Positions 1 through 18,556 of a stretch of DNA of 26,828 nucleotides are shown piece after piece. Position 1 is the first letter of the stretch. The number at the start of each line of letters is the position of its first letter. A model generated the notes under the pieces. It saw only the letters and a list, made by a program, of their open reading frames with translations. It did not search any database and was not told the origin of the DNA. A program made the position numbers and the translations under genes. The DNA is from a virus. Its lineage: Duplodnaviria; Caudoviricetes. The stretch covers positions 1-26,828 of the IMG/VR virus record IMGVR_UViG_3300032330_000150; one strand, 5' to 3'.

Positions 1-188
1 ATATCCAAAAATTTACAAACTTGCAAACCTAATTCAAAGCATAAGGTATGTTTACCTCTTACCCATTGTCTTACGCAAGTTAAAGTAACATCAAGTTCTT
101 CAGCTAAATCTTGATTAGATAATTTCCTTTCTTGCATTCTTTGAATTATCATCATCTGCAAGTTTTTTTTAAATCTTTCAATTGTCAT
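1..188 (-). CDS. XRE/Cro-CI family helix-turn-helix protein (3' end runs off the window; not in ORF track)
   Basis: Manual translation from ATG at 188: MTIERFKKNLQMMIIQRMQERKLSNQDLAEELDVTLTCVRQWVRGKHTLCFELGLQVCKFLD..., matching the XRE pattern LSxxDLAxxLxVTxxxVxxWxRG. Start overlaps the end of the upstream ORF. Confidence 0.85.
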   Translation of the reverse strand, partial: MTIERFKKNLQMMIIQRMQERKLSNQDLAEELDVTLTCVRQWVRGKHTLCFELGLQVCKFLD

Positions 189-948
189 CTTCTATCGGTT
201 TAATTTTTCCTTCACTATTTATTCTTGCATCAAAATCAGCCAACTGATTAGCCAATAAAATATAAGACTGCATTCGGCAATGGTTCTTGCGTTCTTCTTC
301 GTTTTCAATCCCCGCATTTTTTCGCCAAATCTCTAGCATTTCTTCCTTAGATATTGTCTGGATACCAAATTTCACAAGCATTTTGTAAAGTTCACTTAAT
401 CCTCCAGTCATCCAATTAAATGTTTTACCGGTATCTTTTGCCTTCTTCACCTTATCAGCAAAATCATTAATAATTTCAATAGCTTGAAGTTTTAATACTT
501 CATCGCTTGGCTTTGGCAATGGTTCATCTTCAACTACTCGCTGGCTAATAATCCTTGTTTCCTGTGCTGAAAACTCTAAGTACTTTGCCATTATTCTACC
601 AAAAAATTCACAAGAAAAGTTCTCATAGCATTTAGCATCAACTTGAAGCTTTCCAGCTACTGCCATATCAAAAGCTAATTTGATTTGAGCAATCGTTACA
701 TTTGCAAAATTTGTTTTTATAAAATTAATCAATACAAACTTCTCTTCTTCAGTTGGCATATTATTTGCTCGTAATCCAACTAAAAGCATCGAATAGCGTA
801 ACACTTGCTTTAAATCATTTTCATCGCTTAAACGTAAAGTCTGACCCTTGCTTGCAAGCATTAACTGCTCAGCCAAAGCATTACCAGTTCCGTAAGGCTT
901 CCATTCTTGCGGCAGATGTTCCGAGCGGTTTGTTGTTGTCAGTTCCAT
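178..948 (-). CDS. Replication-associated protein, possible helicase loader partner of the initiator
   Basis: 256-aa ORF overlapping the 3' end of the initiator gene (lambda O-P-like position). Function is inferred from position only. Confidence 0.45.
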   Translation of the reverse strand: MELTTTNRSEHLPQEWKPYGTGNALAEQLMLASKGQTLRLSDENDLKQVLRYSMLLVGLRANNMPTEEEKFVLINFIKTNFANVTIAQIKLAFDMAVAGKLQVDAKCYENFSCEFFGRIMAKYLEFSAQETRIISQRVVEDEPLPKPSDEVLKLQAIEIINDFADKVKKAKDTGKTFNWMTGGLSELYKMLVKFGIQTISKEEMLEIWRKNAGIENEEERKNHCRMQSYILLANQLADFDARINSEGKIKPIEDDN

Positions 949-1549
949 TAGTTTTAAATTTAGTTGAGTTAGTGATCCAAGTTTTTATTCTTCTTTCAAT
1001 ATTAAAAAATTTTTCCATTTCCCATCGCTCTTTGCCTTTGTTATTTTTTTCAGTCCAGTAAGAATAGAAATTTTCATATTCATTATTTAAGTCAGCAATG
1101 AATGGCGAAAGCATTTCGCTAAACTCTTCTTTACTTTCTTTTACTTTATTTACTTTACTTTCTTTTACTTTATCAGCATTACGAACAAGTTCTGAACGCG
1201 TTACATTTTCGGTAACTGCTTGATTATCACGCCATTCGGAAATGCGTTTTGCGTTTTTTTCTTTAGAAACTTGATACTTTTTACTAAAGTTTAGCAGTTG
1301 TTTGTTAAAAGTTTCTCCATTATTTGTAGAAATCAAATCAATTTCTTCTAAAAACTTCCAAACTTTCTCTAATTTTTTGCCAACATTAAGCTGGTGTTTA
1401 AGAACATTTGTCTTAATTGGCTTCTCTTGAAGAGCAAGTTTTTCAAGGATCGTGTAGAACAATCCAAGTCCTTCATAACCAAACTCAAGATATAGTTCAG
1501 TTATTTTTTCATCGTTAAACGAATTTGAATCGTGTAGGTAATACTTCAT
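881..1549 (-). CDS. Phage replication initiator-like protein (Lin1244/Lin1753-like, DUF4373-type N-terminus)
   Basis: N-terminal KYYLHDSNSFNDEKI..L..EFGYEGLGLFYTILEKL motif, a low-complexity K/E/S/V linker with DNA repeats, and a C-terminal FYSYW...W..RIKTW domain typical of phage replisome organisers. Confidence 0.7.
   Translation of the reverse strand: MKYYLHDSNSFNDEKITELYLEFGYEGLGLFYTILEKLALQEKPIKTNVLKHQLNVGKKLEKVWKFLEEIDLISTNNGETFNKQLLNFSKKYQVSKEKNAKRISEWRDNQAVTENVTRSELVRNADKVKESKVNKVKESKEEFSEMLSPFIADLNNEYENFYSYWTEKNNKGKERWEMEKFFNIERRIKTWITNSTKFKTNGTDNNKPLGTSAARMEALRNW
1129..1217. repeat. Candidate replication origin inside the initiator gene
   Basis: 21-bp direct repeat CTTTACTTTCTTTTACTTTAT at 1129-1149 and 1153-1173, next to GTTAC/GTAAC/ATTAC elements at about 1178-1217. 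Confidence 0.5.
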
Positions 1550-1558
1550 TTATATAAT

Positions 1559-1598
1559 AAAAAAAGCCAGACAATGCGTGGTAGAGCAAAGCTGGCTT
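1559..1598 (-). terminator. Intrinsic terminator/attenuator immediately upstream of the initiator ATG
   Basis: AAGCCAG...CTGGCTT stem (1598-1564) running into a U7 tract on the minus strand, about 10 nt before ATG 1549. Confidence 0.7.
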
Positions 1599-1651
1599 CG
1601 GTTTTTTAAACCATTAAAATAACCCAAGTGCTACCACCCGCTTGGCTTATT
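1559..1651 (-). ncRNA. Putative structured leader RNA with three hairpins and complementary loops
   Basis: Hairpin 1 (1651-1618, loop GGUGGUAG), hairpin 2 (1612-1600), hairpin 3 (1598-1564, loop UCUACCAC). The loops of 1 and 3 are complementary over 7 nt. Confidence 0.6.
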
Positions 1652-1656
1652 GTATT

Positions 1657-1687
1657 ACAATATACTAATCCTCTATTAACTTCACAA
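1657..1687 (-). promoter_or_regulatory. Bacteroidetes-type sigma promoter, variant -7 box
   Basis: TATATTGT (1664-1657) resembles TAnnTTTG, with TTG 20 nt upstream. It overlaps the inverted repeat TATTGTA-T-TACAATA (1648-1662). Confidence 0.5.
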
Positions 1688-1934
1688 GTCTTTTGCGAAA
1701 TATTCCAGCATATAATGGAAAGTCTTTCTCAAATAATCTGGCATAGTCAGAAGTGTAAGTGTTATTAACTTTAAATCCATCGTTACCACTTACCATTGTT
1801 TGCCAACGGATAACTTCGAAGATTTGCTTTGCTCCAATGTGCTTATAGCCTCGATTGATTAATTGGAATGCCAAACGCTTAAACTCTGTATAGACGCTTG
1901 GGTTGTTTTGATGGTACTGCTTGAAGCTTTTCAT
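1665..1934 (-). CDS. Conserved hypothetical phage protein
   Basis: 89 aa with FxxYHxxNPxVY...IFEVIRW...FKVNN...YARLF pattern that I recall from other phages; function unknown. Confidence 0.7.
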   Translation of the reverse strand: MKSFKQYHQNNPSVYTEFKRLAFQLINRGYKHIGAKQIFEVIRWQTMVSGNDGFKVNNTYTSDYARLFEKDFPLYAGIFRKRLVKLIED

Positions 1935-2019
1935 CTTTAATTAATTTAAGTTTACGATAGTTTTTTTCAAGTTCCTTAGCAAGATGCTCTTGCCATTGGT
2001 TAAAGGTTAGTTCTTTCAT
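1879..2019 (-). CDS. Small hypothetical protein, 46 aa (not in ORF track)
   Basis: MKELTFNQWQEHLAKELEKNYRKLKLIKDEKLQAVPSKQPKRLYRV; ATGA overlap with the upstream ORF; fills the gap in the operon. Confidence 0.65.
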   Translation of the reverse strand: MKELTFNQWQEHLAKELEKNYRKLKLIKDEKLQAVPSKQPKRLYRV

Positions 2020-2135
2020 AGGTTGAATAGATAAACGATTAGATAAATGATCCACATGGAAATCATTCCATATACTCCAAAGAAAGCCAGAACCTCGCTG
2101 GCCTTCTCGTGTTGTTTATTCTTACCTTGAGCCAT
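2016..2135 (-). CDS. Small membrane protein, 39 aa (not in ORF track)
   Basis: MAQGKNKQHEKASEVLAFFGVYGMISMWIIYLIVYLFNL; one hydrophobic helix; overlaps both neighbours. Confidence 0.65.
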   Translation of the reverse strand: MAQGKNKQHEKASEVLAFFGVYGMISMWIIYLIVYLFNL

Positions 2136-2313
2136 GTAATTTCTCGAGCATTAACTCTTTGATTTCTTGCATAACATCTTCGTTCTTGACCTTGCCATAT
2201 ACCACTTGTTGAACTAATGGCATATTGAACTCCCTTGCTGAAAATGGCTTAACTCCTTTTGAGTTTAGTCTATTAGCCACTTCTTGATATAAATCTAACT
2301 TTCTGATTTTCAT
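2122..2313 (-). CDS. Small putative DNA-binding protein (recombinase-domain-like HTH)
   Basis: YQEVANRLNSKGVKPFSAREFNMPLVQQVV resembles the 'IAxxLNxxGIxxxxGxxWxxxxVxxIL' helix motif. Confidence 0.5.
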   Translation of the reverse strand: MKIRKLDLYQEVANRLNSKGVKPFSAREFNMPLVQQVVYGKVKNEDVMQEIKELMLEKLHGSR

Positions 2314-2570
2314 AATGTAAATTCTTTTAACTCTCTAAATTCTTCTATTTTATCTCCATCACAAGATTCTAAAATCTTATCGTATTCTGGAGTTAATTCT
2401 AAAACTCCCAAGCATCTATTACCGGCTAACATATTAGTAACGTACTCATTTGCTTGCTCTTGCGAATCAAATTTCTTGCATTGATAGAAACTTCTTGCAA
2501 ACCATTTATCATCTCCTACGAAGTGATCCTCCCATCTAAATTCGTAGTAATTTGTTAAACTCCAAATCAT
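2310..2570 (-). CDS. Hypothetical protein
   Basis: 86-aa ORF with start/stop overlaps at both ends. Confidence 0.7.
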   Translation of the reverse strand: MIWSLTNYYEFRWEDHFVGDDKWFARSFYQCKKFDSQEQANEYVTNMLAGNRCLGVLELTPEYDKILESCDGDKIEEFRELKEFTL

Positions 2571-2863
2571 TAGAACTCCAAATCTGAATTATTAAACTCA
2601 TTAGCCATATCTCCGTTTAACGCTGGAGTTTCAGTATAAGTTGGCTTGGTATCGGTAGCTTCCCAAGTATCTAACTCGATATAGGCTTTACCATTTTGTG
2701 ACTTATTAACTTTTAGATTCACCCATCCTTTTTTAGAATGCTTTTGGATAAATGCAATCGCATCTTCTGATTTGATTGAGATGTTTCCGATTACAAAATC
2801 TGGTGCGTTATCTGAACGCTTGAAGATGAAACCATCTGCGAATACTTTTTCTTTCTTTTCCAT
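2570..2863 (-). CDS. Putative single-stranded DNA-binding protein
   Basis: Small beta-rich core, flexible tail and an acidic-aromatic C-terminus (NSDLEF, like the SSB DDxPF tip); located near the ERF gene. Confidence 0.6.
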   Translation of the reverse strand: MEKKEKVFADGFIFKRSDNAPDFVIGNISIKSEDAIAFIQKHSKKGWVNLKVNKSQNGKAYIELDTWEATDTKPTYTETPALNGDMANEFNNSDLEF

Positions 2864-3027
2864 TACTTTTTAAGTTGTTGTTTACGGTTATTGATTAAGT
2901 TTAATACTTCTGGTTTTTCTGCTATTTCGGTTTCGTGAGCAAAAAATAAATCATTAAGATTTGAAAGCGTAGTACATTCATTAATTTTTTCTTGCCAATT
3001 AAAAACTAGAGTTATATTAGATTCCAT
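2863..3027 (-). CDS. 54-aa paralogue of the ERF C-terminal helical domain (not in ORF track)
   Basis: MESNITLVFNWQEKINECTTLSNLNDLFFAHETEIAEKPEVLNLINNRKQQLKK; TAATG overlaps at both ends; 12 identities in an ungapped 39-aa alignment to the ERF C-terminus. Confidence 0.75.
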   Translation of the reverse strand: MESNITLVFNWQEKINECTTLSNLNDLFFAHETEIAEKPEVLNLINNRKQQLKK

Positions 3028-3569
3028 TATTTTAAAAATGATTTACGGTTTGAAAATAATTTGATTTGCTCTGGAGTTAATTCATAATCAGAACTTACTT
3101 GCTTATAATAAGCATTTAGCTTCTCAATAGATGATGTAGCATTAATGCTTGATGCAATGATAACATCATCAATCTTTGGTTTTGCTTGAACTGATTCTTT
3201 AACTTGAGTACCAGAAGCATCTGTATCTTTGTCTGTAATAATACCAAGCATTGAACTCAAAGCATATCTTCTAAAGTAAGTTACTCCCGATCCATACGCT
3301 TGATAATCATTCATATTCCCAAGTTTTACTTTTGGAATCTGAGTGAAGCTTTCAAGTTGCTCGCCACTATCAACATGAAATAAGATAGTCTTAATGCCAT
3401 CGTTCTCCAGTAATTGTGTGAAGCAAAGCTTGTGTTTCTTTAGCAATGGATTAATAACGCTAAAGATTTGAGGAAGGTCAGCATAAGTATAGTTATGACC
3501 TTTTGTATCCTTGTGGATAATTGGACATTCATTTTGGAAGTCCGAGAGAGATTTGATTAGGTTTTTCAT
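3027..3569 (-). CDS. erf: ERF-family single-strand annealing protein
   Basis: YTYADLPQI...INPLLKKHKL and QAYGSGVTYFRRYALSSMLGIITDKDTD, matching the ERF signature GSxxTYxRRYxLxxxxGIxxxxDxD. Confidence 0.9.
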   Translation of the reverse strand: MKNLIKSLSDFQNECPIIHKDTKGHNYTYADLPQIFSVINPLLKKHKLCFTQLLENDGIKTILFHVDSGEQLESFTQIPKVKLGNMNDYQAYGSGVTYFRRYALSSMLGIITDKDTDASGTQVKESVQAKPKIDDVIIASSINATSSIEKLNAYYKQVSSDYELTPEQIKLFSNRKSFLK

Positions 3570-3574
3570 ATTGA

Positions 3575-3805
3575 TTAAGTTAAAGTGATTTTAAAATTAA
3601 CTGATTGATATTCAAAATTAAAGACAATCCAGCTTTTTGTTATAATTGCTTCATCTACAAATTTGAATCCAATATCTTTTGGATGCTTGTTATCATATCC
3701 TTGTAAGCTGATATGGTCTGACATAATGTGAATTGAATAGAAGTAGTTAATATCTACTTTGTGTTCTTCAATAAAGTTTTTTAATACTGCAAATTTAGTT
3801 TCCAT
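3575..3805 (-). CDS. Hypothetical protein
   Basis: 76-aa ORF in the early operon with an A-rich leader. Confidence 0.7.
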   Translation of the reverse strand: METKFAVLKNFIEEHKVDINYFYSIHIMSDHISLQGYDNKHPKDIGFKFVDEAIITKSWIVFNFEYQSVNFKITLT

Positions 3806-3950
3806 TGTTTAAAAATTTAATAAAGATTGATTTTGATTTTTGACACTCGTGTTGGATAATATCCTTGATAGTCCAAAGTTCGTGATTGAAAGACCAGGTC
3901 ATTGTGTAATAACCGGCTTCATCCTTGAATTGTGCTTTGATAATTTTCAT
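3795..3950 (-). CDS. Small hypothetical protein, 51 aa (not in ORF track)
   Basis: MKIIKAQFKDEAGYYTMTWSFNHELWTIKDIIQHECQKSKSIFIKFLNNGN; ATGA overlap with the upstream ORF. Confidence 0.65.
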   Translation of the reverse strand: MKIIKAQFKDEAGYYTMTWSFNHELWTIKDIIQHECQKSKSIFIKFLNNGN

Positions 3951-4072
3951 AGGTTTTCAATGATTGAAACGATTGATAATAATAAGATTAATCCAGCGAA
4001 AGTTTTAATTGCTGGAATGATGTCGGCTGATGTGAAATCTTCGCCTAACATTAGTGAGATAAAGTTTTTCAT
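3947..4072 (-). CDS. Small membrane protein, 41 aa, first gene of the early operon (not in ORF track)
   Basis: MKNFISLMLGEDFTSADIIPAIKTFAGLILLLSIVSIIENL; C-terminal hydrophobic helix; leader AATAAACCTTATCAAAATG. Confidence 0.65.
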   Translation of the reverse strand: MKNFISLMLGEDFTSADIIPAIKTFAGLILLLSIVSIIENL

Positions 4073-4111
4073 TTTGATAAGGTTTATTCGATTGCTTCGT
4101 TGCTTTCGATG

Positions 4112-4123
4112 TGTAATATTACA
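4112..4123. promoter_or_regulatory. Perfect 12-bp palindrome, candidate operator or early promoter
   Basis: TGTAATATTACA, about 40 nt upstream of ATG 4072 and downstream of a terminator. Confidence 0.45.
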
Positions 4124-4173
4124 AAGAAGATTCTAAATAAAAAAACTTTTTTAAATATTTTTTATCAATCAAC

Positions 4174-4205
4174 AAAAAAGGACATCAGTAAAACCGACAT
4201 CCTTT
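4174..4205 (-). terminator. Intrinsic terminator
   Basis: AAAGGAUGUCGGU-UUU-ACUGAUGUCCUUU stem (G.U pairs work only on the minus strand) ending in a U6 tract. Confidence 0.8.
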
Positions 4206-4241
4206 CCTTTTAACTAAACCTATTATCACTATGAAAACTCT
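4174..4241 (-). ncRNA. Putative approx. 65-nt antisense small RNA
   Basis: Lies between a perfect TATATTTG box and a terminator. Its 5' half is complementary to the start region of the gene at 4072. Confidence 0.55.
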
Positions 4242-4243
4242 TA

Positions 4244-4251
4244 CAAATATA
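4244..4251 (-). promoter_or_regulatory. Bacteroidetes -7 promoter element
   Basis: TATATTTG is an exact TAnnTTTG match directly after the stop codon at 4252; TTG lies 23 nt upstream (4277-4275). Confidence 0.65.
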
Positions 4252-5406
4252 TTAAAATATATGAGAAAGCCTTGCAACTTGTCCAAATTCTTTATGATGA
4301 ATAAATCCTTCAACTGCTTTGGTAGCATGTTGGTATCCGTTACGATGATGCCAAGAATCAGTTCCAGATGGTGATCTAAGTGATTCAATTGTAACTCCTA
4401 TATAATCCTTGCTTACTTTGTGATGTAGGTGATGGCTATAAACATATTTATGCTCCGTATTAGCCCATAATTCTTTTGCTTCAACTGCCATAAGTAAAGG
4501 CAAGTCTTGTGGCTTTGCTCCATCGCCGTGAGTGCTACCAATTAAATTGCTACCATACCGGTAGTATTTACGATGTGCAATTGAACAATCAAAGGTAATA
4601 TTGCCATTTAATCTAAACCAACTTTGAATAACATCTGCAAGAAAGAATCCACTTTGATAATCGTGATTACTTGGATTAAAAACAAAATGAATATCTGCTA
4701 CTTGTAAAAGCAATTCAATTACTTCAACATATAGCTTCTTGGCACATAAGAAATTCTCATAAAACATCCCATCAGTGTCTTGTGGTGTACCACTCGTAGT
4801 TGTTCGCTTGGCTGAATCAGTATGTAATATATCATTACCAGCTATAAATAAAATTTGGTCAATATTGAACCCTTGTGCTTTTTGAATGATTCCACGAACT
4901 CCATCCAATACTCTTTTTGTAGCAATCTCCACATTGTATGAATCACCAGTTTCGTAAGCAGTAGCAAGCTTCCCAATGTGTATATCAGCAGGATCAACAA
5001 CAAGTAAATGACCATCACTAATATTTGTCCTAATAATATTAGGATAAACTGGGGAGTATTCTTGCATGCTCGCAATAACCTCATCTCTGATTTCCTCATA
5101 GGTTTTAGCTTTATCGCCTTTAACATGAACTGAATATTGCTTTCCCTTATACCAGTAGTTTGAAACATTCTCTACCGGTAAGCCAACTGCCTCGCATTCT
5201 GTTGTAAGTGCTGGATGATTATTAGTTTTCTTATACCTTTGAACTCTACGAAGCAAAGCTATTCTTAAACGTTCCTTGTCGGTATCGGGATATAAACTTA
5301 CTAAATGCCGAACAATAGCACCTTGAGTTTGAAATTTACCAGACTTATATAATTCCAAAGCCTCTTGGCTTATTTCTTCAGAAGTCTTATTTTCTTCCTT
5401 GCTCAT
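4252..5406 (-). CDS. Calcineurin-like metallophosphoesterase with N-terminal extension
   Basis: Motifs ADIHIG, GNDILH, SNHD, HGD and HHLHH in canonical order. Confidence 0.8.
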   Translation of the reverse strand: MSKEENKTSEEISQEALELYKSGKFQTQGAIVRHLVSLYPDTDKERLRIALLRRVQRYKKTNNHPALTTECEAVGLPVENVSNYWYKGKQYSVHVKGDKAKTYEEIRDEVIASMQEYSPVYPNIIRTNISDGHLLVVDPADIHIGKLATAYETGDSYNVEIATKRVLDGVRGIIQKAQGFNIDQILFIAGNDILHTDSAKRTTTSGTPQDTDGMFYENFLCAKKLYVEVIELLLQVADIHFVFNPSNHDYQSGFFLADVIQSWFRLNGNITFDCSIAHRKYYRYGSNLIGSTHGDGAKPQDLPLLMAVEAKELWANTEHKYVYSHHLHHKVSKDYIGVTIESLRSPSGTDSWHHRNGYQHATKAVEGFIHHKEFGQVARLSHIF

Positions 5407-5638
5407 ATTCAGTCATTAATTGATCCACCAAAAATTCAATATTATTATTTAATTTCATTTTTAAAACAAAGGTTGAATCATCAGAATCTTTTACGGATTC
5501 TAAGACATCAAGCATCGTTCCGAGCATTACCGATGTAGTTAATCTATCTGGTTCGTGCTTTTCCATTGGTTCAACTCTTATTTCGTACATAGTATTATTA
5601 AAATTGTAGTAGACAATATAAAGAAATTTCTTTGCCAT
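5387..5638 (-). CDS. Hypothetical protein (true start may be the internal MYEIR or MEKHE)
   Basis: ORF bridges the lysis cassette and the phosphoesterase, overlapping both. Confidence 0.55.
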   Translation of the reverse strand: MAKKFLYIVYYNFNNTMYEIRVEPMEKHEPDRLTTSVMLGTMLDVLESVKDSDDSTFVLKMKLNNNIEFLVDQLMTEYEQGRK

Positions 5639-5934
5639 CCATTTCTTTTACGTTTACTTTCGCTTATAATAAACGACTTTTCTGTTTCGTATATCTTTGT
5701 TTGTCTATTAGCGTTATCGTTGTTTAAAATCGAAATATAAGCCGTATTAAGGCTATCTTTTCTTAATAATAACTTGCGCTCTTTTAAATCGTGAATTATT
5801 GTATCCATTAAAGTAACTGGAATACAAATTTGTTTACCTGTATGACCTGTAATTTTGTATGAAACTTGTCCTTTGGCTATCTGAATAAGTAAAAGGAATC
5901 CGATTAATAAAGGAATCGATTTTAATGATTTCAT
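5578..5934 (-). CDS. Putative spanin-like lysis accessory protein
   Basis: N-terminal signal peptide (..IAKG|Q), central coiled coil, C-terminal hydrophobic helix; overlaps the upstream ORF by 101 nt; follows the endolysin. Confidence 0.5.
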   Translation of the reverse strand: MKSLKSIPLLIGFLLLIQIAKGQVSYKITGHTGKQICIPVTLMDTIIHDLKERKLLLRKDSLNTAYISILNNDNANRQTKIYETEKSFIISESKRKRNGWQRNFFILSTTILIILCTK

Positions 5935-6070
5935 TCTTTGTAGTTATTTGTTGTGAGATTGGCAATGAATTAGGCTTTTTATTGTAGGATTTATAAATAA
6001 ATGCTACAAAAAACAAAAGCAGTAAACTTGTTACTGCCTTTATTAGATTAGAGTATTGGTCAAGATTCAT
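5834..6070 (-). CDS. Putative i-spanin-like membrane protein
   Basis: Single N-terminal TM (AVTSLLLLFFVAFIY) directly after the endolysin. Confidence 0.5.
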   Translation of the reverse strand: MNLDQYSNLIKAVTSLLLLFFVAFIYKSYNKKPNSLPISQQITTKNEIIKIDSFINRIPFTYSDSQRTSFIQNYRSYR

Positions 6071-6515
6071 ATAAATCAGCTTCTGCCGTTCTTCTTTTTG
6101 TTAATCCAGCTAATACTTTGCCTCCTCCTTTATTCCATTTTAAAAACTCTTGTCGAATTGTAGCATCGTTAGGATTAGCATTAACTTTCTTTAATAGTGT
6201 TGAACTTTTAAGATTACTAACTCCACAATTATAAGCGAAAGAAACTAAAGCATCGAATTGTCCTTGAGTAATGTCATCTCGTGTATAACTATCAACTGAT
6301 TGCTCATAATGTTTAAGTACATGACTTAACATTGATGAAGCCTCAAATTCTGAAATTGGCTTATCAGTCATTTTAACTTTTCTACCATCTGGATAGTAAG
6401 TTAATCCGTAAGAAATTGTGGGAATGCCAGCTGGGCAAAGATATGGTTTAAGACTTAATCCTTCAAATGTCTTGATTAGGTTTAGTCCTTTTGCGCTTGA
6501 TTGGTTGATTTTCAT
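6060..6515 (-). CDS. Endolysin, GH24 phage lysozyme
   Basis: FEGLSLKPYLCPAGIPTISYG (E-x8-C-x5-T triad), QGQFDALVSFAYNCG, and WNKGGGKVLAGLTKRRTAE. Confidence 0.95.
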   Translation of the reverse strand: MKINQSSAKGLNLIKTFEGLSLKPYLCPAGIPTISYGLTYYPDGRKVKMTDKPISEFEASSMLSHVLKHYEQSVDSYTRDDITQGQFDALVSFAYNCGVSNLKSSTLLKKVNANPNDATIRQEFLKWNKGGGKVLAGLTKRRTAEADLYES

Positions 6516-6783
6516 CTAATCCGAGTTTGTGCTTTAAATCGCTATTCTCTGTGCGTAATGAATGTACTTCTTGCGTTAGCGCATCGACCTTGTCGCTCAA
6601 CTCTTTTACTTTGTCCGACATATCCTGTGCCATCTCTCGCCAAATTTTGATTGCTTCTTGTGTGTTAGTTATTTCAGTTCCTTGAACTTCTACGTTCTCC
6701 TTCTTTCTACCGAAAAACCATGTAACTAATGCTCCAAAAAAGGCTGTAAGAGATGGCACTAATATATCAGAAAAATTAAACAT
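6463..6783 (-). CDS. Putative holin (N-terminal TM plus cytoplasmic coiled coil)
   Basis: ILVPSLTAFFGALVTWFFG followed by RKK and heptad repeats; directly upstream of the lysozyme. Confidence 0.6.
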   Translation of the reverse strand: MFNFSDILVPSLTAFFGALVTWFFGRKKENVEVQGTEITNTQEAIKIWREMAQDMSDKVKELSDKVDALTQEVHSLRTENSDLKHKLGLDENQPIKRKRTKPNQDI

Positions 6784-6784
6784 A

Positions 6785-7057
6785 TTACAATGAACCTTCA
6801 GTTAAAACTTCTTCTTTTTTAGTTAAGCCTAAAGTGTCCAATGCCCAATCAATAATAATTGAATCATCAACTCCCCATTCAGCAACTACCGGTTCTGGAA
6901 TAATTAGATTGCCTTCCTCAATCATTTTATTGAATTGAGATTGTAAACAAAAGTAAAGCGTTTGTTCTGCTCCTTGTAGAACATAATTAACAACTTTAAT
7001 CTCGATGCGATCCGCAATCTCTCTTACTCCTTTTACTGGTTCAATGAATACAATCAT
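6785..7057 (-). CDS. Hypothetical acidic protein, possibly fibre-associated
   Basis: 90 aa with a ...WGVDDSIIIDWALDTLGL motif; follows the fibre genes. Confidence 0.65.
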   Translation of the reverse strand: MIVFIEPVKGVREIADRIEIKVVNYVLQGAEQTLYFCLQSQFNKMIEEGNLIIPEPVVAEWGVDDSIIIDWALDTLGLTKKEEVLTEGSL

Positions 7058-7058
7058 T

Positions 7059-7328
7059 TTAGTCTTGAATAAATGTTTCTAAAAGTTGAGCCTTTGCAAG
7101 TACAGTAAAGCTATCTGATTCTTTGACAAATGTCTTTAAGGTTTCTTGGTCTGATTTGTCTAAATCTAAAACCTCACCTTTAAATAATTTTTTTGCCCAA
7201 TCCCAAAACTTTAGTGCATCTCCTTTTGATGCTCCAGCTAATGCACTTGCTAATGTTTTTCCAGCGTTACCACCTTCAAACGCTACTTCATCTAACCCGA
7301 TAAAGTTAAAGTTAAAATCTAATTTCAT
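7059..7328 (-). CDS. Hypothetical protein, possible tail fibre assembly chaperone
   Basis: 89-aa helical ORF after the fibre genes; function inferred from position. Confidence 0.6.
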   Translation of the reverse strand: MKLDFNFNFIGLDEVAFEGGNAGKTLASALAGASKGDALKFWDWAKKLFKGEVLDLDKSDQETLKTFVKESDSFTVLAKAQLLETFIQD

Positions 7329-7368
7329 TTGGTTGTATTTAAGTTTAACAATAATAAATAGCTAATCT

Positions 7369-9483
7369 TTAAGAATTTATAAAATTACCTCCCGAATCTA
7401 CTGAAATTGTTAAGTTAATATCTCGTAAAAAAGGATCGTTGTATCTTGAATTTATTTTGATTCCAGTATTGGCAGAAGAATCAATATCGTTTCTATTTGT
7501 ACTAAATGCAATGCTTGTATTGTTATATAACAAAGTCAAATAAGTGTACATTCCAAAGTATTGCTCGCCTCCAATATCATAAATTAATGGATAGGATAGA
7601 GATACATATCCATTGTTTCTTGTTGGATTTAAATACCAAATACCAAATGAACCTAATGAATTTCCAATAGAAACTAAGTTAATAGTTGTAGGGCTTCCAA
7701 GATATACATGGCGATAGCGTAATTGCATATTCGTAGTAGTATTTGGAGTATTGGTAAAATTAAATGAATAATATTCCAAATAATTACTTGCCCAAGTTAT
7801 TGAAGTAGTACCTTGAGATTGATACGAACTATTTTTATAAAAATAATAGGTAGCATTTTGCAATGATGAAATCATTGTATTAGACGATGTAATTACTAAA
7901 CCACTTTGAGAACTATTATTTGCTCTAAAATAGTCAATATTCATCGGTAATTTAATACGAAAATAATATTGTCCAACAGGTACATTATTCACTTTATTGG
8001 TAATTTCCATTCTTTGTTGAAGCGCATTCCATGTAGCTTGGAAATAATTCGAATCCAATGAAACTTGTGCTTGATTGCCGGGATAAAATGATGGAATAAT
8101 ACAAGTTATCAATAATCCATCTGCTCCACTATTTCCATTAGTAATATTTAAGAAAGAAGAATAATAAGCATCATCTGTCGGAACTGCTACAATAGAAGCA
8201 TTAGGATTTTTCTCTTTTGAATTAAAACTATAATTTTCAGATAAAACTCCGAATGAATAAGTAGGTTCAGCAGTTACATCAAAATAAACATAATTAGATT
8301 CTGTATAATTATTTTGCATATTGCCTCCGCTTCCTGTCGCTTTAAATGAATAGCTTCCTACCGTATTAGTATAAATACTAAATATTAAAGTAGCTGAATA
8401 TCCATTTGCTAAAGATTGGCTTGTTGTAAAAGATACTATCTGACCATTTACGCTAATTGAATAAATATTAGGAACAGATATTACTCCATTGTAACTGATT
8501 CCAGCTGGCAATGCAATCTGAAAAGTTATGTTTCCATTTGTGGCAACTACTTGATTAGTTACTTGAAGCGTTACCGTTCCTGTTGATCCTTTATTTATAA
8601 CGCTAGGCGATTCAAATAAAGTAAGCTGAACAACTGGATATTGGTAAACACAAGAACCTTGAGTATTTGCTTGATTTTGCCCATTATAATCAAGCCAAGT
8701 TGAAGCTTGAGAATAACTCATTTGATAAGCATTTGAATCAGCATCCGCTTGACTTATATAACTTGTATAGGTATTCGTATAATATGGCGAATAAATTTGC
8801 TCATAGGTACCGGTACCATAACCTCCACAATTATTCTTTTGATAGGTTCTATCTAATCTAAGTGTTTGAGTTGATGTCCAAGTCTGAGTTATTACCGAAG
8901 TTGTAGTTGTATTTGAGTATCGAACTACTGAATCGCCACCACCAGTAACCGAAGCATAGTTATTATATGTCGCATTGTAAACCGTTTTAACTACAATCGT
9001 TACTTGAGTAGATTGACCAATTCCTAAAGTACCATTGAACTGCAAAGCAACAACATTATTCGCCACGCTACCACTCCAATTCGTACCACTTACTGATTGG
9101 TAAACTAAATTAGTTTGTAGTGTATCCGTTACATAAATAATACCACTTGTTGAAGCTTGACCATTGTTGGTAATGGTAATAATAAAGTTAAAATTCTGGT
9201 TGTTATATGCTTGTGATGGTGCTGATTTACTGATTGTCAAGAATGGCTTTGAAACATTGCAGATTTGGCAATACTTGTACCATTCCGTTGGAAATACCGT
9301 TGGTAAAGTACCATCTGGTTTAAACTCCGAAAACTGATTTAATGGAATAGTCTGCCCTTGAGCATTTTGTAATTGCCCAAGTTCGGCAGCCGTAATAGAA
9401 ATAGGGGGATTCGTTAATGATTCCCCCGTTATTTCATTGTAAACATCTGCAAAGGACATTTGTCCCGAAGCTTGTAAAGCCAT
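7369..9483 (-). CDS. Virion adhesin-like protein with DUF11-type Ig-like domains and a DUF5977-like domain
   Basis: N-terminal MALQASGQMSFADVYNE motif; LTISKSA...FIITITNNGQAST..IYVTDTL (DUF11-like); YQKNNCG...YTSYISQADAD...GQNQANTQGSC (DUF5977-like); a second Ig-like repeat follows. Confidence 0.65.
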   Translation of the reverse strand: MALQASGQMSFADVYNEITGESLTNPPISITAAELGQLQNAQGQTIPLNQFSEFKPDGTLPTVFPTEWYKYCQICNVSKPFLTISKSAPSQAYNNQNFNFIITITNNGQASTSGIIYVTDTLQTNLVYQSVSGTNWSGSVANNVVALQFNGTLGIGQSTQVTIVVKTVYNATYNNYASVTGGGDSVVRYSNTTTTSVITQTWTSTQTLRLDRTYQKNNCGGYGTGTYEQIYSPYYTNTYTSYISQADADSNAYQMSYSQASTWLDYNGQNQANTQGSCVYQYPVVQLTLFESPSVINKGSTGTVTLQVTNQVVATNGNITFQIALPAGISYNGVISVPNIYSISVNGQIVSFTTSQSLANGYSATLIFSIYTNTVGSYSFKATGSGGNMQNNYTESNYVYFDVTAEPTYSFGVLSENYSFNSKEKNPNASIVAVPTDDAYYSSFLNITNGNSGADGLLITCIIPSFYPGNQAQVSLDSNYFQATWNALQQRMEITNKVNNVPVGQYYFRIKLPMNIDYFRANNSSQSGLVITSSNTMISSLQNATYYFYKNSSYQSQGTTSITWASNYLEYYSFNFTNTPNTTTNMQLRYRHVYLGSPTTINLVSIGNSLGSFGIWYLNPTRNNGYVSLSYPLIYDIGGEQYFGMYTYLTLLYNNTSIAFSTNRNDIDSSANTGIKINSRYNDPFLRDINLTISVDSGGNFINS

Positions 9484-11148
9484 TTATTTATTCAATAATG
9501 CTTTTAACTCGTTGATTTGTGTTTGTTGCTCTTTGATAGCCTCAATTAGTAAAGCCGATATATTACCATATTCAACTCCAAGAATGCCATCGTTTCCTTT
9601 GTTTACAATTTCTGGTAATACTCCTTGAATCTCTTGAGCAATTACCCCAGCGTGTCGCTTAGAATCATCTTCTTTGAACTCGTATGTATATCCGTTGATT
9701 TGCTCTACTTTTTCAAGCGCATTCTCAATCTTTAATAGATTCTTTTTTAAGATAATATCAGAGTTTGCTGTGATTGTTCCTGTTGCTCTTATTGCACCAC
9801 TAACATAAAGCTTTTCTCCATTATCTGTTAAAGTACCAATTAAAAAATTTCCACCATATGGAAGAGATGCAAATCCTTTATATGATGAACCAGCAGAATT
9901 TCTTCCTTCAAATACGAATAAATTACTATAATTATAAAAATAATAACCAGCATCTCCACTTGTATCGTAAAAATGTGAAATCACATTCCCAGCAGTTGAT
10001 TGATAAACTTGAAATTTTGAATTAAATATAGTCCCTGTTGTTCCGATTGCAACTCTACCATCTGAAAGAATTCGCATCCTTTCCCCAGAACCAGAATCGT
10101 TTCTTGTATTAAAAACTAAATGACCACCTAAATCTGAAGCAACAAGCATTCCAATGGTTGCTCTTGGCTGCATACTTGCAGTAGAATTAAATGCGCTAAA
10201 CATAATTGAAGCATCGTTTCCTACTGCATAAGTGCTTCGAGTATTTACAATATTTAAAGCACCATGATTTAAATCAGCTTGGTTAGTATCATTTTCAATT
10301 CTGACAACTCCCCAAATATTTGTACTCCCAGTTATTGCTAATTTTTCATTACTTACTGCTGAAGTTTTATTTATTCCAATAAAAGTACCTGTATCATAAA
10401 TTAAACCATTTCCTAATGCACTTGATGAAGTCCATTTTGCATGGTATCCACTTGTTCCTGTACCAGTTACTGGATTTGTTAATACTGCTTGATATTGAGG
10501 AATATTTAAAGTACCAGCTGAAAAAGTTGCTGCACCCGAAGTTCCTGTAGTTGTTAAGGTAATTGTACTTTGTTTTCCATTAAATGTATTCCAATCAGTA
10601 GAACTTAAATACCCATTTGTAGATGTATTTGCTTGACTTATACTTATCGCTCCGGTAGTTGAATTATAACCAATTGGCGCAGTTCCACTAAGTGATGCTC
10701 TTGCTAAAGCATCTGTATATTGAGTAATAGTTGTAGCAATAACTCCAGTTCCACTATTATAAGTAATTCCAGTACCAGCACTTAAAAAAGTAGCAGTAAT
10801 ACCACCAAGTCCAGCAAGCGTATATGTTGGAACATTTAAAACACCAGTTGAAGATGAATAAGTTGATGCTCCACTCGATCCTGTAGTTGTTAAGCTAATC
10901 GCACCTCTTGCTCTTGTATTAGTAAAGTATAAGTTTGTAGGACTAACTGCTTCGGCAACATCATCCGTATTTAATACTACCGTTCCAACTTTACCATTAA
11001 CTGATACAACTGCACCACCAATCGCAGCTTGAAGTTCTGCAATAGTTTTCTTATAAAGCGTACCTGTTGTAGCATCGCCAATCGGAAATAAATCCGTTGA
11101 TAATACTGAACTCTTGCTCGCAAGTTGCGTTATTTTTTTATTCGCCAT
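9484..11148 (-). CDS. Tail fibre/spike with C-terminal intramolecular chaperone (peptidase S74)
   Basis: T/G/S-rich shaft, VVSVNGKVGTVVL motif, and C-terminal SDIILKKN...GVIAQE...LPEIV...Y..I..LLIEAIKE plus coiled coil. Confidence 0.85.
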   Translation of the reverse strand: MANKKITQLASKSSVLSTDLFPIGDATTGTLYKKTIAELQAAIGGAVVSVNGKVGTVVLNTDDVAEAVSPTNLYFTNTRARGAISLTTTGSSGASTYSSSTGVLNVPTYTLAGLGGITATFLSAGTGITYNSGTGVIATTITQYTDALARASLSGTAPIGYNSTTGAISISQANTSTNGYLSSTDWNTFNGKQSTITLTTTGTSGAATFSAGTLNIPQYQAVLTNPVTGTGTSGYHAKWTSSSALGNGLIYDTGTFIGINKTSAVSNEKLAITGSTNIWGVVRIENDTNQADLNHGALNIVNTRSTYAVGNDASIMFSAFNSTASMQPRATIGMLVASDLGGHLVFNTRNDSGSGERMRILSDGRVAIGTTGTIFNSKFQVYQSTAGNVISHFYDTSGDAGYYFYNYSNLFVFEGRNSAGSSYKGFASLPYGGNFLIGTLTDNGEKLYVSGAIRATGTITANSDIILKKNLLKIENALEKVEQINGYTYEFKEDDSKRHAGVIAQEIQGVLPEIVNKGNDGILGVEYGNISALLIEAIKEQQTQINELKALLNK

Positions 11149-11153
11149 TCTTT

Positions 11154-11480
11154 TTAGTTATTAGATGCCCAAGGCAAAGGAAGTACAATTACTGGAGGAT
11201 TTATTAAAGTATCTAATTTTGTATTTAATTCTTCATCTATTGCTTCCATATCAAGTCCAGATTCTAGCCAAGCTTCTACATCTGCTTGAGTTAAATCAGC
11301 ATAAGCAGTAAAGTCTATTTCGCTTGGTGATGGGCATCCCATAATGCCATAAGTTTCGGCAATGTATGTGCCATCCGTTATGCTTCTTCGCCAGTGAACT
11401 ACTGAAACTACATCCGTTAATCCATCTATTGATGGGATTGTATCCATTGCACTAATAATCCAAGAGTATATTAAAGCCAT
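11154..11480 (-). CDS. Small acidic fibre-associated phage protein
   Basis: YSWII..MD....DGLTDVV..VHW...FTAYADLTQADVEAWL...LPW pattern; sits between two fibre genes. Confidence 0.65.
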   Translation of the reverse strand: MALIYSWIISAMDTIPSIDGLTDVVSVVHWRRSITDGTYIAETYGIMGCPSPSEIDFTAYADLTQADVEAWLESGLDMEAIDEELNTKLDTLINPPVIVLPLPWASNN

Positions 11481-11489
11481 TTTATTTAA

Positions 11490-14400
11490 TTAAATAGAAG
11501 TTATCGTTTGCCAAGTAGTTGAAAATACGCATAATTTACCAAGTGTAGAATCAAATACAACTAATCCTGTCGCTGGTGATGATATTGCATTCTTCTGAGT
11601 AGTTGTCATTACAGGAGGCAAAAAGCCTTTTGTCGTAGAACTCATTGACAATAATGCTGATGCAGTAGTCGAGGTTGTACCTAAAAGTAAATTCCCGTAA
11701 ATAGCCGTAGTAACAGTTGATGAGTTACCTAATACAGTAGTGTTTGAGCCTAAGCCTGTGGAATTTATTCCTATTACTATTGAATTATCATTACCTTGAG
11801 AAAGTGGTTTTGTACTAGCACCAATTAAAATACCATTAGTGAATGATGTTGTCTGAGTTATTCCATCAGCAATAAATCTTCCTGCTTGGTTTCCTAATGT
11901 AGTATTTGACCCACCCGTTGTTATACCAGATAATGATTGAAATCCGACTATGACATTACTACTTGTAGCAGTATTAGTACTATATGTTTGATTACCAATT
12001 ATTATGTTTTGTGTTCCTGTTGTATTAGCTAAAAAAGTATTTACTCCAATAGCAATATTATTAGTAGCAGTTGAATTACCAGAACCTGCACTTGCACCTA
12101 TAAAAGTGTTGCTACCTCCAGTTGTATTATTTTGTCCTGCACCTGCACCTAAAAATGTATTAGTATTACCTATTGATGTATTCTGACCTGCTGCTTGCCC
12201 AACAAATGTATTTGCTTGCCCAGTTGTATTAGATTGTCCTGCTTGATATGAAATGAATGTATTATTTTGCCCTGTTGTATTTCTTCTACCTGCGTTTTGT
12301 CCAATAAATGTATTACTAATAATACTGCTTGCCCTTATTCCTATACTTTCTGTACCTGCACTATTTGCAAATATTGATGAAGCAGAACTTGTTCCAATAG
12401 ATTTAATACTCAATACAACCGTTCCATCAAAATCAGTTGTTGGAGTTATTGTAAGAACTGCCGTAGATGATGATAAAGGTCCAGTTGCTCCTGTTGCCGT
12501 TGTACTTGTAGAAGTACCTCCAAAATCAATTTGAATTGAACCAGCCGTTCTACCTGTAATGGTATAGGTAATCTGATAATATGTTCCACTAACCGCAGCT
12601 AATGATGTAGTCAAAGGAACTATTGAACCTACCGTATGCGTATAACCACCAACGTTTAAGTTAGTTCCTGCTAAAGTCCAGTTAGTACCTGTTCCAGTAA
12701 CCGCAGCTAATTCTGCTCCTAAAGGTGCAGTATCTGAAGCAGTAGTTCCTGTGAAACGAGTTAATCCAAATACATCTAAACGGTATCCAGCGTCGGTAAA
12801 GGTTCCTCCGTTTTGGAGAATAAAGTTTCCAGTAGTACCTTTAAATTGAGCCATTAAAATACTACTATTATTAAATGACATATCTGAACCTACTCCACAA
12901 CGCAAATCTAATCTAGTAATACCTCTAAATGTTTGCCCCCAAACTGTAAGAAATTCACTTGTAAATGTTCCTAAATTATAAACATCATTAAAAGTAGGAA
13001 TTATATCTCCTTTTACTCTTAATCCAATATTACTAACACCTGTAAACGCACCATTCGTAAAAGTTGGATTAATATCCAACCCTACTAATACATCACTATT
13101 CGCTGAAGCTACTAATGTTGGAGTATAATTTACACCTCTTGCTATTGCTGAAGAAGCAGTAATTGAACCTGTAACGTTAAACAATCCTGTACCAGCAGTT
13201 CCGTTAATCGTTACGTTTGTACCATTGTCATAGATTAAGCTATTACCTATCGCTGATGTTCCTGTGAACTTTGGAACATAGTTTATTGTGCCTGTACCTG
13301 TAATAGGATTTGTTAATGCAGCTTGCTTTCCGTTAAATGTATTCCAATCGGTACTACTTAAATAACCGTTAGTTGTTGTTGTAGCTTGCGCAATGCCTAT
13401 TGCTCCTGTTGTATTATTGTAAGTAATAGGAGCAGTTCCACTTAAAGCAGTTAAACCGATACCACCTAAATTAGTTAAAGCCCCACTTGCAGTTGATGCC
13501 CCAGTTCCTCCTCTATTAATTGCAACTACATTTCCATTCCAAGTAGCCGAAGTAATTGAACCTGCGTAATCGAATGTATTTGTACTCCAACTTACGTTAG
13601 AAGGTGCTTGAAAATGTCTATCCCAAGTACCAGCAGCACTTGTATTATCAAGTAATTCTACTTGAGCATAGCCACCACTTGGCACTGATACTACTAATGT
13701 ATTACTATTATTATTAATTGTAATAGCACCACTACTTTGGTTATTATTAAAGATGTAAACTGCTCCATTGGGAATAGTAGTAGCATTTGGCAATTTAAAT
13801 GTTTGTCCTCCAGAACCATTAACTAAATAAGAAGAAACGGAATCAATTGTTAAAACTATTTGAGTACCAGATGCAGTAATAGACGAAAAACCATCAAATA
13901 TATTATTGACTATTAAATTCTTAGAGCCTAAATTTAAATTTTGTGATGCTCCTGTATATGGAACATAATTAGATAACGCAGATGAAGTAATAAATCCAGA
14001 AGGATTACTAGTATCATACTTAGCGTTTAAAGCCGTTTGAGTTGCTGAACTAATTGGCTTATTAACATCACTTGTATTATCAATGTTGCCTAAACCTACC
14101 ATTGATTTAGTAATTCCACTAACCGTTCCGGTAAATGTTGGAGATGCTAATGGTGCTTTTGTATTTAAAGCATTTTGTAAATCAGTTTGATTTGTAATGT
14201 TACCGGTAATTGATCCCCAACTTGTAGAAGTTGTAGGAGAAATTTCAATATATGCGCTATCTACAAAACGATACAATTTATTCGTATCATTCGTTACATA
14301 GATTTTACCAACTTCTCCAATCGTTGGAAAGTCTGCATAAGTAGGATAATCTAAAAGGAATTTAATATAATTAATTGAGCCACCACTTGCGCCACTTCCA

Positions 14401-14867
14401 CTTCCAATCCATTCGGGATAAGTATAATCATCTGGGATTTGACATCTATCAGTAAGCATTGGATAGTTAATAGTAATATCAAGCTTTACTCCCGATAAAT
14501 AATCCTTTTCGTTTTCAGTAAAAAATTCGATGCTAACATCTTCATCAAGTTTCCAATCAAACTTTGGATAACGCATCATTGAAAAGATGTCTTGACCGAT
14601 TAATAATTGGTCTGAAAGTACATCCGTTTCATTTGATTCATCTTGTAATTGACGATCTAAAAAGAATAGGCTAAAATCCATTGCCAAATTCTTTCCAGAA
14701 ATTTGAGAACCAGTCAATGAATAGAACATTGCTGGATAAGTATTATCAGTTTGAGCAAGAAATTCCCAAACATCTCCAAAATAAACAGTATTTATTTGGT
14801 CATGGCTTAATGCTATGTCCCGAATTAATTTGACCGTTTGGTTTAATGTTAGTTGTTGTACTGCCAT
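11490..14867 (-). CDS. Long fibre protein with an N-terminal tail-terminator/neck-like domain
   Basis: First approx. 150 aa are acidic and globular, ending in DRCQIP, followed by a GSGSGASGGS linker, fibre modules (WGSITG..QTDL, ASPTFTG, VGLGNIDNTSD, GYLSSTDWNTFN) and 14-aa beta-roll repeats. Confidence 0.75.
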   Translation of the reverse strand: MAVQQLTLNQTVKLIRDIALSHDQINTVYFGDVWEFLAQTDNTYPAMFYSLTGSQISGKNLAMDFSLFFLDRQLQDESNETDVLSDQLLIGQDIFSMMRYPKFDWKLDEDVSIEFFTENEKDYLSGVKLDITINYPMLTDRCQIPDDYTYPEWIGSGSGASGGSINYIKFLLDYPTYADFPTIGEVGKIYVTNDTNKLYRFVDSAYIEISPTTSTSWGSITGNITNQTDLQNALNTKAPLASPTFTGTVSGITKSMVGLGNIDNTSDVNKPISSATQTALNAKYDTSNPSGFITSSALSNYVPYTGASQNLNLGSKNLIVNNIFDGFSSITASGTQIVLTIDSVSSYLVNGSGGQTFKLPNATTIPNGAVYIFNNNQSSGAITINNNSNTLVVSVPSGGYAQVELLDNTSAAGTWDRHFQAPSNVSWSTNTFDYAGSITSATWNGNVVAINRGGTGASTASGALTNLGGIGLTALSGTAPITYNNTTGAIGIAQATTTTNGYLSSTDWNTFNGKQAALTNPITGTGTINYVPKFTGTSAIGNSLIYDNGTNVTINGTAGTGLFNVTGSITASSAIARGVNYTPTLVASANSDVLVGLDINPTFTNGAFTGVSNIGLRVKGDIIPTFNDVYNLGTFTSEFLTVWGQTFRGITRLDLRCGVGSDMSFNNSSILMAQFKGTTGNFILQNGGTFTDAGYRLDVFGLTRFTGTTASDTAPLGAELAAVTGTGTNWTLAGTNLNVGGYTHTVGSIVPLTTSLAAVSGTYYQITYTITGRTAGSIQIDFGGTSTSTTATGATGPLSSSTAVLTITPTTDFDGTVVLSIKSIGTSSASSIFANSAGTESIGIRASSIISNTFIGQNAGRRNTTGQNNTFISYQAGQSNTTGQANTFVGQAAGQNTSIGNTNTFLGAGAGQNNTTGGSNTFIGASAGSGNSTATNNIAIGVNTFLANTTGTQNIIIGNQTYSTNTATSSNVIVGFQSLSGITTGGSNTTLGNQAGRFIADGITQTTSFTNGILIGASTKPLSQGNDNSIVIGINSTGLGSNTTVLGNSSTVTTAIYGNLLLGTTSTTASALLSMSSTTKGFLPPVMTTTQKNAISSPATGLVVFDSTLGKLCVFSTTWQTITSI
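11875..12314 (-). repeat. Tandem 14-aa (42-bp) coding repeats NTF(I/V/L)GxxAGxxNTTG
   Basis: About 10 degenerate copies visible in the translation, resembling YadA-head-like beta-roll repeats. Confidence 0.8.
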
Positions 14868-14928
14868 TTTGTTTTGATAAATAAACCTTTAGTTTATTGA
14901 TGTTTTTAATTGAGTATGCTTTAGGCAT
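14800..14928 (-). CDS. Small basic peptide, 42 aa (not in ORF track)
   Basis: MPKAYSIKNINKLKVYLSKQNG...; ATG 4 nt after the adaptor stop; fills the intergenic gap and overlaps the next gene. Confidence 0.45.
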   Translation of the reverse strand: MPKAYSIKNINKLKVYLSKQNGSTTTNIKPNGQINSGHSIKP

Positions 14929-14932
14929 ATTA

Positions 14933-15529
14933 TTAACAAGTTAAACAAATACCAAATGCTCCTTGATATTTTTCTTCGAAACTTAAAGGTCTATCGGGAT
15001 TATAAGTATAATCTCCACCAAGCCACATTGAAGCTGAATAAGAATCTCTATCTGGTCGAATCTTATCTACACCAATACCAAAGTTTAAATATTGCGGATA
15101 TTTTCCTTGTGCAGCGTTTTGACGCAAGTATTTAATCGTTCTTTGGCGATAAAATTCTGCTCTTGACCGATACCGATTAGCCACATCAATCAATTCTTGC
15201 ATATCGGGATTAATCGTATTATCACTTGACTTGCGAACTAATCCTTTATTGTAAAATTGGAAGCTTAAACCTACCGGTAACTCTGACAATACAAAGTAAA
15301 CTAAAGTTGTTGTAATGAAATCATCTAATAAAGTAACCTCATCAGCGTTTAAATCATTGGCAACAATACCAGCTTGAAGTCTTTCGTAAAGATTTGTTCC
15401 AAGCAAAGGCAAAATATACATATCTTGAGCAGTTGCGATTTCGGGCATTATCAATTTATCATCAATATTTGCATGAAGTCCAGTTCTCTCCTTGATTGTA
15501 TTAACCGAAATAAATAAAGTATTCTTCAT
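14933..15529 (-). CDS. Putative head-tail adaptor/connector
   Basis: 198 aa directly after the portal; LFIS...IK..T.L..NID..LI.P.I..AQD.YI.PLLGT.LY pattern typical of adaptor proteins. Confidence 0.65.
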   Translation of the reverse strand: MKNTLFISVNTIKERTGLHANIDDKLIMPEIATAQDMYILPLLGTNLYERLQAGIVANDLNADEVTLLDDFITTTLVYFVLSELPVGLSFQFYNKGLVRKSSDNTINPDMQELIDVANRYRSRAEFYRQRTIKYLRQNAAQGKYPQYLNFGIGVDKIRPDRDSYSASMWLGGDYTYNPDRPLSFEEKYQGAFGICLTC

Positions 15530-15532
15530 CTC

Positions 15533-17892: not shown

Positions 17893-17926
17893 CTTTTATA
17901 AATAGCAAATAATTCAATATTACTAT

Positions 17927-17955
17927 AAAAAAGAAAAGGAGGAACTCTGTCCTCC
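17927..17955 (-). terminator. Intrinsic terminator after the tail tube gene
   Basis: GGAGGA-CAGAGU-UCCUCC followed by UUUUCUUUUUU. Confidence 0.85.
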
Positions 17956-17983
17956 AATTCTAACCTAATCAACCAAACTATCT

Positions 17984-18496: not shown

Positions 18497-18517
18497 ATTA
18501 TTTTCTTTTAAAGTGTT

Positions 18518-18550: not shown

Positions 18551-18556
18551 ATTAAA

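Follow-up and report, generated by a model that had tools for sequence, protein, structure and literature searches.

The FopS RNAs of Bacteroides thetaiotaomicron are about 70 nt long, are transcribed from sigma-A promoters, carry a 5′ seed that starts with UUUUCAU and end in a Rho-independent terminator (PMC11697453). RNAs of this type have been characterised in gut Bacteroides as regulators of host metabolism; they are multicopy in host chromosomes, target SusC mRNAs and block translation by pairing with start codons, as FopS-10 does in vitro, and their 5′ ends bind the protein RbpB (PMC11697453). One FopS copy lies in a Bacteroides phage, which the part of that report drawn on here presents as no more than a means by which the RNA may spread (PMC11697453). 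GibS likewise pairs with the region of the start codon through a long unpaired 5′ seed; its phylum lacks Shine–Dalgarno sequences and uses an A-rich initiation window in their place (PMC7366714). Among phages, PreS (LPR1) of lambda and VpdS are short RNAs with a terminator and several mRNA partners (10.1101/2024.10.31.621285).

We analysed one stretch of viral DNA, here called the window, which is a linear record of 26.8 kb (26,828 nucleotides) that is 75% complete. It contains a predicted 66-nt RNA gene that resembles the RNAs above, although several differences set it apart. With respect to FopS, it scores 25 bits against a cut-off of 56, the second block of its seed differs, and its relatives are found in Cytophagales, whereas those of FopS are found in Bacteroidaceae; moreover, it is present here as a single copy in an apparently lytic phage and its seed covaries with phage early leaders. 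GibS, by contrast, is 145 nt long, has two seeds and a PM2 promoter, and acts on host metabolic targets (PMC7366714). PreS depends on Hfq and has mainly host targets, PreS and VpdS both belong to temperate phages of Proteobacteria, and a captured host sRNA family is not described in the part of that work considered here (10.1101/2024.10.31.621285). What is new at the present locus is a closely matched pair of host and phage RNAs, together with a covariation that would aim the phage copy at the phage's own early genes. A literature search, with most subscription papers outside its scope, turned up no description either of the Cytophagales branch or of seed–leader covariation in phages.

Layout of the locus and the predicted RNA

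All genes of the window lie on the minus strand. The late/lysis block ends with an exonuclease/phosphoesterase-like gene (4252–5406; phrog_704, E = 3e-75), and one base past its stop codon lies a -7 box of the Bacteroidota sigma-A type, TATATTTG (4251–4244). The box is followed by an unpaired stretch complementary to a leader and its AUG (4241–4215) and by an intrinsic terminator (4205–4174; hairpin 4202–4180, U6 tail 4179–4174), which is recognised from its fold and from covariation; the general terminator scan of the window did not list hairpin 4202–4180. These minus-strand elements agree with the first-pass annotation, which had proposed the same box, anti-start stretch and terminator. Since a TAnnTTTG box occupies positions -12 to -5 (PMC9723704), the predicted transcription start is about 4239, which gives an RNA of 66 nt (4239–4174). 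The transcript of about 65 nt proposed earlier stands in size and in its lack of an open reading frame, but its predicted start has moved.

The first 33 nt of the predicted RNA are unpaired in the fold, and the 70-nt region is more stable (-17.3 kcal/mol, z -3.67) than every one of 200 shuffles, in line with the earlier description of an unstructured stretch followed by a strong terminator. The single-stranded seed (4237–4214) consists of block 1, UUUUCAU (4237–4231, complementary to AUGAAAA), a variable spacer and block 2, AUAGGUUUAG (4223–4214, complementary to CUAAACCUAU). Opening the seed costs about 1 kcal/mol, as does opening the main target. That predicted target comprises the first early gene's leader together with its AUG (4086–4066), chosen on duplex formation and on covariation across phage types; the gene itself (3947–4072, ATG at 4072) encodes a 41-residue product of unassigned function with no match in PHROG or Pfam. 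The start of an Erf-like single-stranded DNA annealing protein gene (3027–3569; phrog_155, E = 5e-33) is a secondary predicted target.

Two further features of the window are recorded here. A 12-bp palindrome, TGTAATATTACA (4112–4123, minus strand), occupies the spot that in many relatives is taken by the early promoter box TACCTTTG, and may be a promoter variant or an operator. A structured non-coding stretch ahead of the replication gene (1550–1665, minus strand) carries a TATATTGT box at 1664–1657 and a hairpin with GTGGTAG (1637–1631), the complement of which, CTACCAC (1584–1578), lies in the loop of a terminator-like hairpin; judged by its predicted folding, this stretch looks like an attenuator or antisense switch, and similar leaders precede HNH genes in three relatives (L008, L011 and L013).

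Conservation among phages and chromosomal relatives

We gathered 80 loci by means of the upstream protein; the 29 nearest, with identities from about 69% upwards, were then examined. The two seed blocks lie downstream of the phosphoesterase gene in 27 of these; of the exceptions, L015 ends without downstream DNA and L040 lacks the blocks. Among the remaining 51 loci, the pattern occurs anywhere in L032 only. In the three relatives that have acquired an HNH gene upstream, the element is displaced downstream by about 600 nt and still precedes the early promoter, with which it has moved. A pattern scan of viral contigs found at least 120 loci (about 310 estimated), some of them in phages of other organisation (L096, L143 and L192), and a terminator follows the motif in 32 of 107 distinct viral hits against 13 of 1500 random places. 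Each of ten records examined holds one strong copy. Two variant arrangements were seen: in L014 (4169–4260) the hairpin is truncated and runs into inverted sequence from the lysis region, perhaps through chimeric assembly, and in L021, L024, L025 and L100 the first seed block is tandemly duplicated upstream of the full seed.

In an alignment of 45 copies, partly selected by the pattern itself (A1), the seed blocks are 98% conserved against 58% for the spacer, 46% for the linker and about 60% for the stem; the U-tail is 97% conserved. The terminator stem pairs in 93% of cells, with two-sided changes at 10 of 11 pairs (45 sequences), whereas slid controls pair at 41–62%. A strict TAnnTTTG box lies upstream of 26 of 47 phage copies (3.5% of random windows), and a strict or TAnnTTG box upstream of 35 of 47 (6.6% of random windows), an enrichment that is somewhat inflated because the TA is frequently supplied by a stop codon. 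TAnnTTGY is a flavobacterial promoter variant (PMC9723704).

The first-pass annotation did not recognise the RNA as a described family and suggested an Rfam search. None of the Rfam families reached its cut-off in the window; the best of six weak matches was FopS (RF04319), over its full length, with 25.2 bits and E = 0.077 against a gathering cut-off of 56. The phage RNA has the architecture of FopS, namely a single-stranded 5′ stretch and a Rho-independent terminator within about 70 nt, and a promoter predicted from the sequence directly upstream. The UUUUCAU of the R1-type FopS seed is common to both, and the downstream UAG(A/G)UUUA aligns in part only. FopS is multicopy; the phages carry a single copy, and the chromosomal relatives described below are multicopy. 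Because the score test failed, we file the phage RNA as a FopS-like variant rather than as a family member. Nevertheless, the architecture, the related seed and the close chromosomal relatives in the family of Aquirufa run counter to the view that it resembles no described family.

These relatives were found with a model, R2, built from phage copies only, with which the window copy scores 73.8 bits by construction. Within the family of G001, an uncultured Aquirufa sp. genome (Cytophagales) that holds locus L222, copies scoring at least 50 bits (50–69) turned up in 19 of 61 genomes; this GTDB family we take to be Spirosomaceae. A blastn search with window positions 1–19900 matched the element in 15 of 301 genomes of the same family. 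The chromosomal copies stand in tandem arrays of two to six units with a nearly invariant seed, both blocks of which are identical to those of the phage, and several are preceded by the -7 box of the window at equal spacing. The pair in G001 is flanked by pth and metG in a neighbourhood of housekeeping genes and is therefore chromosomal rather than part of a prophage. Such tandem genes (L322:7740-7931, which is G001:C13:16740-16929, and L327–L349) apparently form a so far undescribed FopS-like chromosomal family; none of 41 genomes of Aquirufa's family passes the RF04319 cut-off, with 36.5 bits as the best score. An RRM_1 domain was found in one of four host-family genomes searched, the other three being small and maybe incomplete.

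Outside this family, no score of 50 bits or more was found in 51 Flavobacterium, 101 Chitinophaga-family, 15 G003-family and 51 control genomes, where 49–150 candidates were scored per genome, so that a miss means not found rather than absent. Lower scores occurred in 13 of 51 Flavobacterium genomes (at most 45 bits), in one of the 15 and in one of the 101 (43 bits), and we take them as noise or as ambiguous, since AT-rich non-Bacteroidota genomes of Halarcobacter's family reach up to 42 bits in 20 of 51 cases. A Prolixibacteraceae genome has three copies (L323:4737-4991, L324:4250-4315), two of which score about 40 bits with FopS and 45 with R2; on these scores they are a possible bridge between FopS and the phage model.

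Other approaches to the host said little. The capsid protein gave one match among 401 genomes of the phylum (24%) and, among phages, matched only Nonlabens phages (24%); CRISPR spacers gave no clear match in 301 genomes of Aquirufa's family, and the intergenic region gave no informative match in GenBank phages. From the shared RNA, we infer an Aquirufa-type host and capture of the RNA gene from host to phage. Separately, window positions 14020–14170, within a 1125-residue tail-region gene, match repeated stretches of 70–80% identity in Aquirufa's family, mostly in small genomes (2.3–2.8 Mb), and by this similarity may be a host-derived module.

Pairing with early start regions

Duplex energies were calculated with ViennaRNA duplexfold. 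The 23-bp duplex with 4086–4061 described in the first-pass annotation was reproduced (-18.7 kcal/mol, in blocks of 11, 5 and 7 bp), but the corrected start reduces it to 19 bp and -16.4 kcal/mol. The shorter duplex beats 1990 of 2000 shuffles of the seed and 1999 of 2000 shuffles of the target, so that 10 and 1, respectively, do as well; however, 33 of 5350 genome windows pair equally well, and the target ranks joint third among 569 minus-strand ATGs, so this single duplex proves little alone. The secondary matches at 3950, 3569, 2313 and 2019 are all present, but they are individually weak (-11.6 to -14.9 kcal/mol, shuffle p = 0.01–0.09), the best being the Erf-like start at 3569 (-14.9 kcal/mol, p = 0.01).

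Taken as sets, the start regions are more informative. The 13 early starts of the window average -11.9 against -6.8 for 23 upstream or late starts (p = 8e-5), and early starts pair better than late ones by 2.2–5.9 kcal/mol in all of nine genomes, a gap equalled by 0–2 of 60 seed shuffles in each; per-genome p values range from 0.0003 to 0.11, without significance in G136 (0.11) and G137 (0.086). Part of this signal is generic Bacteroidota start context, since the host seed also gives a gap of 1.6 or more in seven of the nine genomes.

We treated own-versus-cross pairing as the decisive target test. Own seeds prefer their own early sets (p = 0.005), also when the first gene is left out (p = 0.013), but show no such preference for late genes (p = 0.76). 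On the first leader, the mean over 39 loci is -16.8 with own seeds and -11.7 with the host seed (L096, L137 and L192, which have another gene context, and loci short of downstream DNA were left out), and the values for the window are -18.1 and -11.9. With eight clusters defined by the upstream protein, some of which share a seed type and one of which is built on the HNH protein, the diagonal has p = 4e-5. With seven sequence types, grouped by eye, the exact p for own-leader preference is 7/5040, compared with 3852/5040 for promoter-side, 479/5040 for coding and 162/5040 for reverse-complement controls, the last being weakly non-random; types A, E and G are mutually interchangeable. The changes can be read directly: after GUUUAG, the RNAs of types B, C and D read AUG, AAUUG and GUUU, and their leaders carry CATCTAA, ATTCTAA and AACCTAA, respectively. 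In four genomes of types B and C, three to four early leaders, as distant as 4.7 kb, contain CATCTAA or ATTCTAA and none of the late leaders does, a distribution that speaks against inverted copying at close range. The type-specific 7-mer is missing from the early leaders of four of the nine genomes, the window included. Covariation between the RNA and the first leader, suggested earlier as a check, thus holds across phage types but not inside the window's own cluster (p = 0.79), and the seed of the window ranks 22nd of 39 on its own leader. Together, conservation, promoter enrichment, seed–leader covariation and the early-over-late pairing argue for the RNA proposed at first pass, a predicted stand-alone, ORF-less, multi-target antagonist of early start codons.

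The accompanying suggestion of a role in immunity fared less well. P1 C4 and P4 CI, to which the RNA had been likened, are immunity functions of temperate phages and are processed, structured RNAs. The likeness is that they too are small and silence downstream genes of their own region by pairing; it is a loose one, since here no Rfam family is matched at its cut-off, neither RNA is among the six weak Rfam matches, and no integrase was found. Tyrosine integrase (PF00589) and resolvase (PF00239) are absent from five of five relatives that are 93–100% complete, so damping or shut-off of early genes fits better than immunity. Nor did the ORFs scanned in G143 (30 of 48) and G137 (13 of 46) match an integrase or repressor. 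On this gene content a lytic cycle is likely, although a plasmid-type lysogeny may be compatible with the missing integrase.

Readings of the element and its meaning

The reading that we favour, with moderate confidence, is that the element is a FopS-like 66-nt RNA gene derived from the multicopy family of Aquirufa-type hosts, the unpaired 5′ half of which would block early translation at the start of the first gene and at other early starts. Host polymerase would transcribe it from the -7 box, possibly topped up by the 3′ ends of late mRNA, and, on the first and several further early genes, the open seed would mask the AUG and the A-rich window where initiation takes place. Accumulation of the RNA during infection would lower early protein synthesis, acting in the lytic cycle as a timer or as negative feedback, and the terminator hairpin would shield the early promoter from transcripts running through from the late genes. 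Some pairing with host exported-protein mRNAs is probably retained by the invariant seed blocks. We put forward a broader version only tentatively: a widespread lytic aquatic phage group may have captured a host anti-start-codon RNA and repeatedly re-tuned it with its early-leader motifs into an RNA-only early-to-late switch, with the invariant blocks also silencing host surface-protein mRNAs.

It is unlikely, in our view, that host messages are instead the principal targets, such that the RNA mimics host FopS-like RNAs and represses mRNAs of exported or outer-membrane proteins, for nutrient redirection or for receptor loss and hence superinfection exclusion, with phage-leader pairing secondary; the first-pass annotation had left host mRNAs out of consideration. 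The identity of both seed blocks with those of the host agrees with this, and SusC mRNAs are FopS targets (PMC11697453). The 120 exact complements of the seed examined in bacterial genomes include 45 true gene starts; 35 of the 45 have hydrophobic N-termini, and those scanned (34) include TonB-dependent receptors and glycoside hydrolases. Across 590 genes of G001 (about 800 kb of 2.6 Mb), the phage seed pairs preferentially with genes that encode a signal peptide (p = 1e-4; gap -1.05 against -0.01 to -0.68 for shuffles) and has 19 strong targets, at or below -16, against 1–15 for shuffles. The host seed, however, has 33, its exact form occurs in one viral contig only, and the variable positions of the phage seed follow the phage leaders. 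Pairing models thus leave host export-protein mRNAs as possible additional targets. Among the predicted host targets, the phage seed pairs most strongly (-24.2) with L473:13633-14526 (plus strand), a gene with a twin-arginine-like signal start, and several other top targets share such N-termini.

We judge it improbable that the pairing acts in cis, within late transcripts that read through the terminator: the anti-start stretch would there fold onto the leader of the first early gene, some 150 nt downstream, and block early translation from late mRNA. As one molecule, 4241–4040 does fold in this way (-47.8), the genes lie on a single strand and the promoter TA comes from a stop codon in many copies. 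Against this, the U-tail is almost invariant, host copies stand alone in tandem arrays, and complements occur in leaders kilobases distant. We give very little weight to the view that only a host terminator was captured, with complementarity arising from AT-rich start context or inverted-repeat copying, or that the RNA titrates a host RNA-binding protein: the 33 genome windows that equal the main target, and the binding of RbpB by FopS 5′ ends (PMC11697453), are what it would explain, but conservation is much higher in the seed blocks than in the stem sequence (0.98 versus 0.6), promoter enrichment and covariation at a distance speak against a bare terminator, and RRM_1 was not found in those three small, maybe incomplete genomes of Aquirufa's family. 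Finally, a plus-strand sponge for host RNA or small gene is highly improbable, and the peptide gene was rejected, since the 47-codon frame from 4231, despite its good leader and ATGAAA, varies from 0 to 87 codons in relatives, mostly below 30, and both promoter and U-tail are oriented along the minus strand.

The favoured reading, a FopS-like RNA directed at early start codons, places a Cytophagales branch of such RNAs in both host chromosomes and phages, and it draws on seed–target covariation, a kind of evidence rarely obtainable for trans-acting RNAs. Since named Aquirufa species exist, the phage itself is not needed to test the RNA. If confirmed, this reading would mean that a lytic phage can shut off its early genes without a protein and that a host regulator has been redirected to viral mRNAs, and the RNA would serve as a marker for predicting the hosts of a phage group that is uncultured. 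Were the broader version also true, a single host-derived RNA would set the timing of the phage programme and reshape the host envelope as well.
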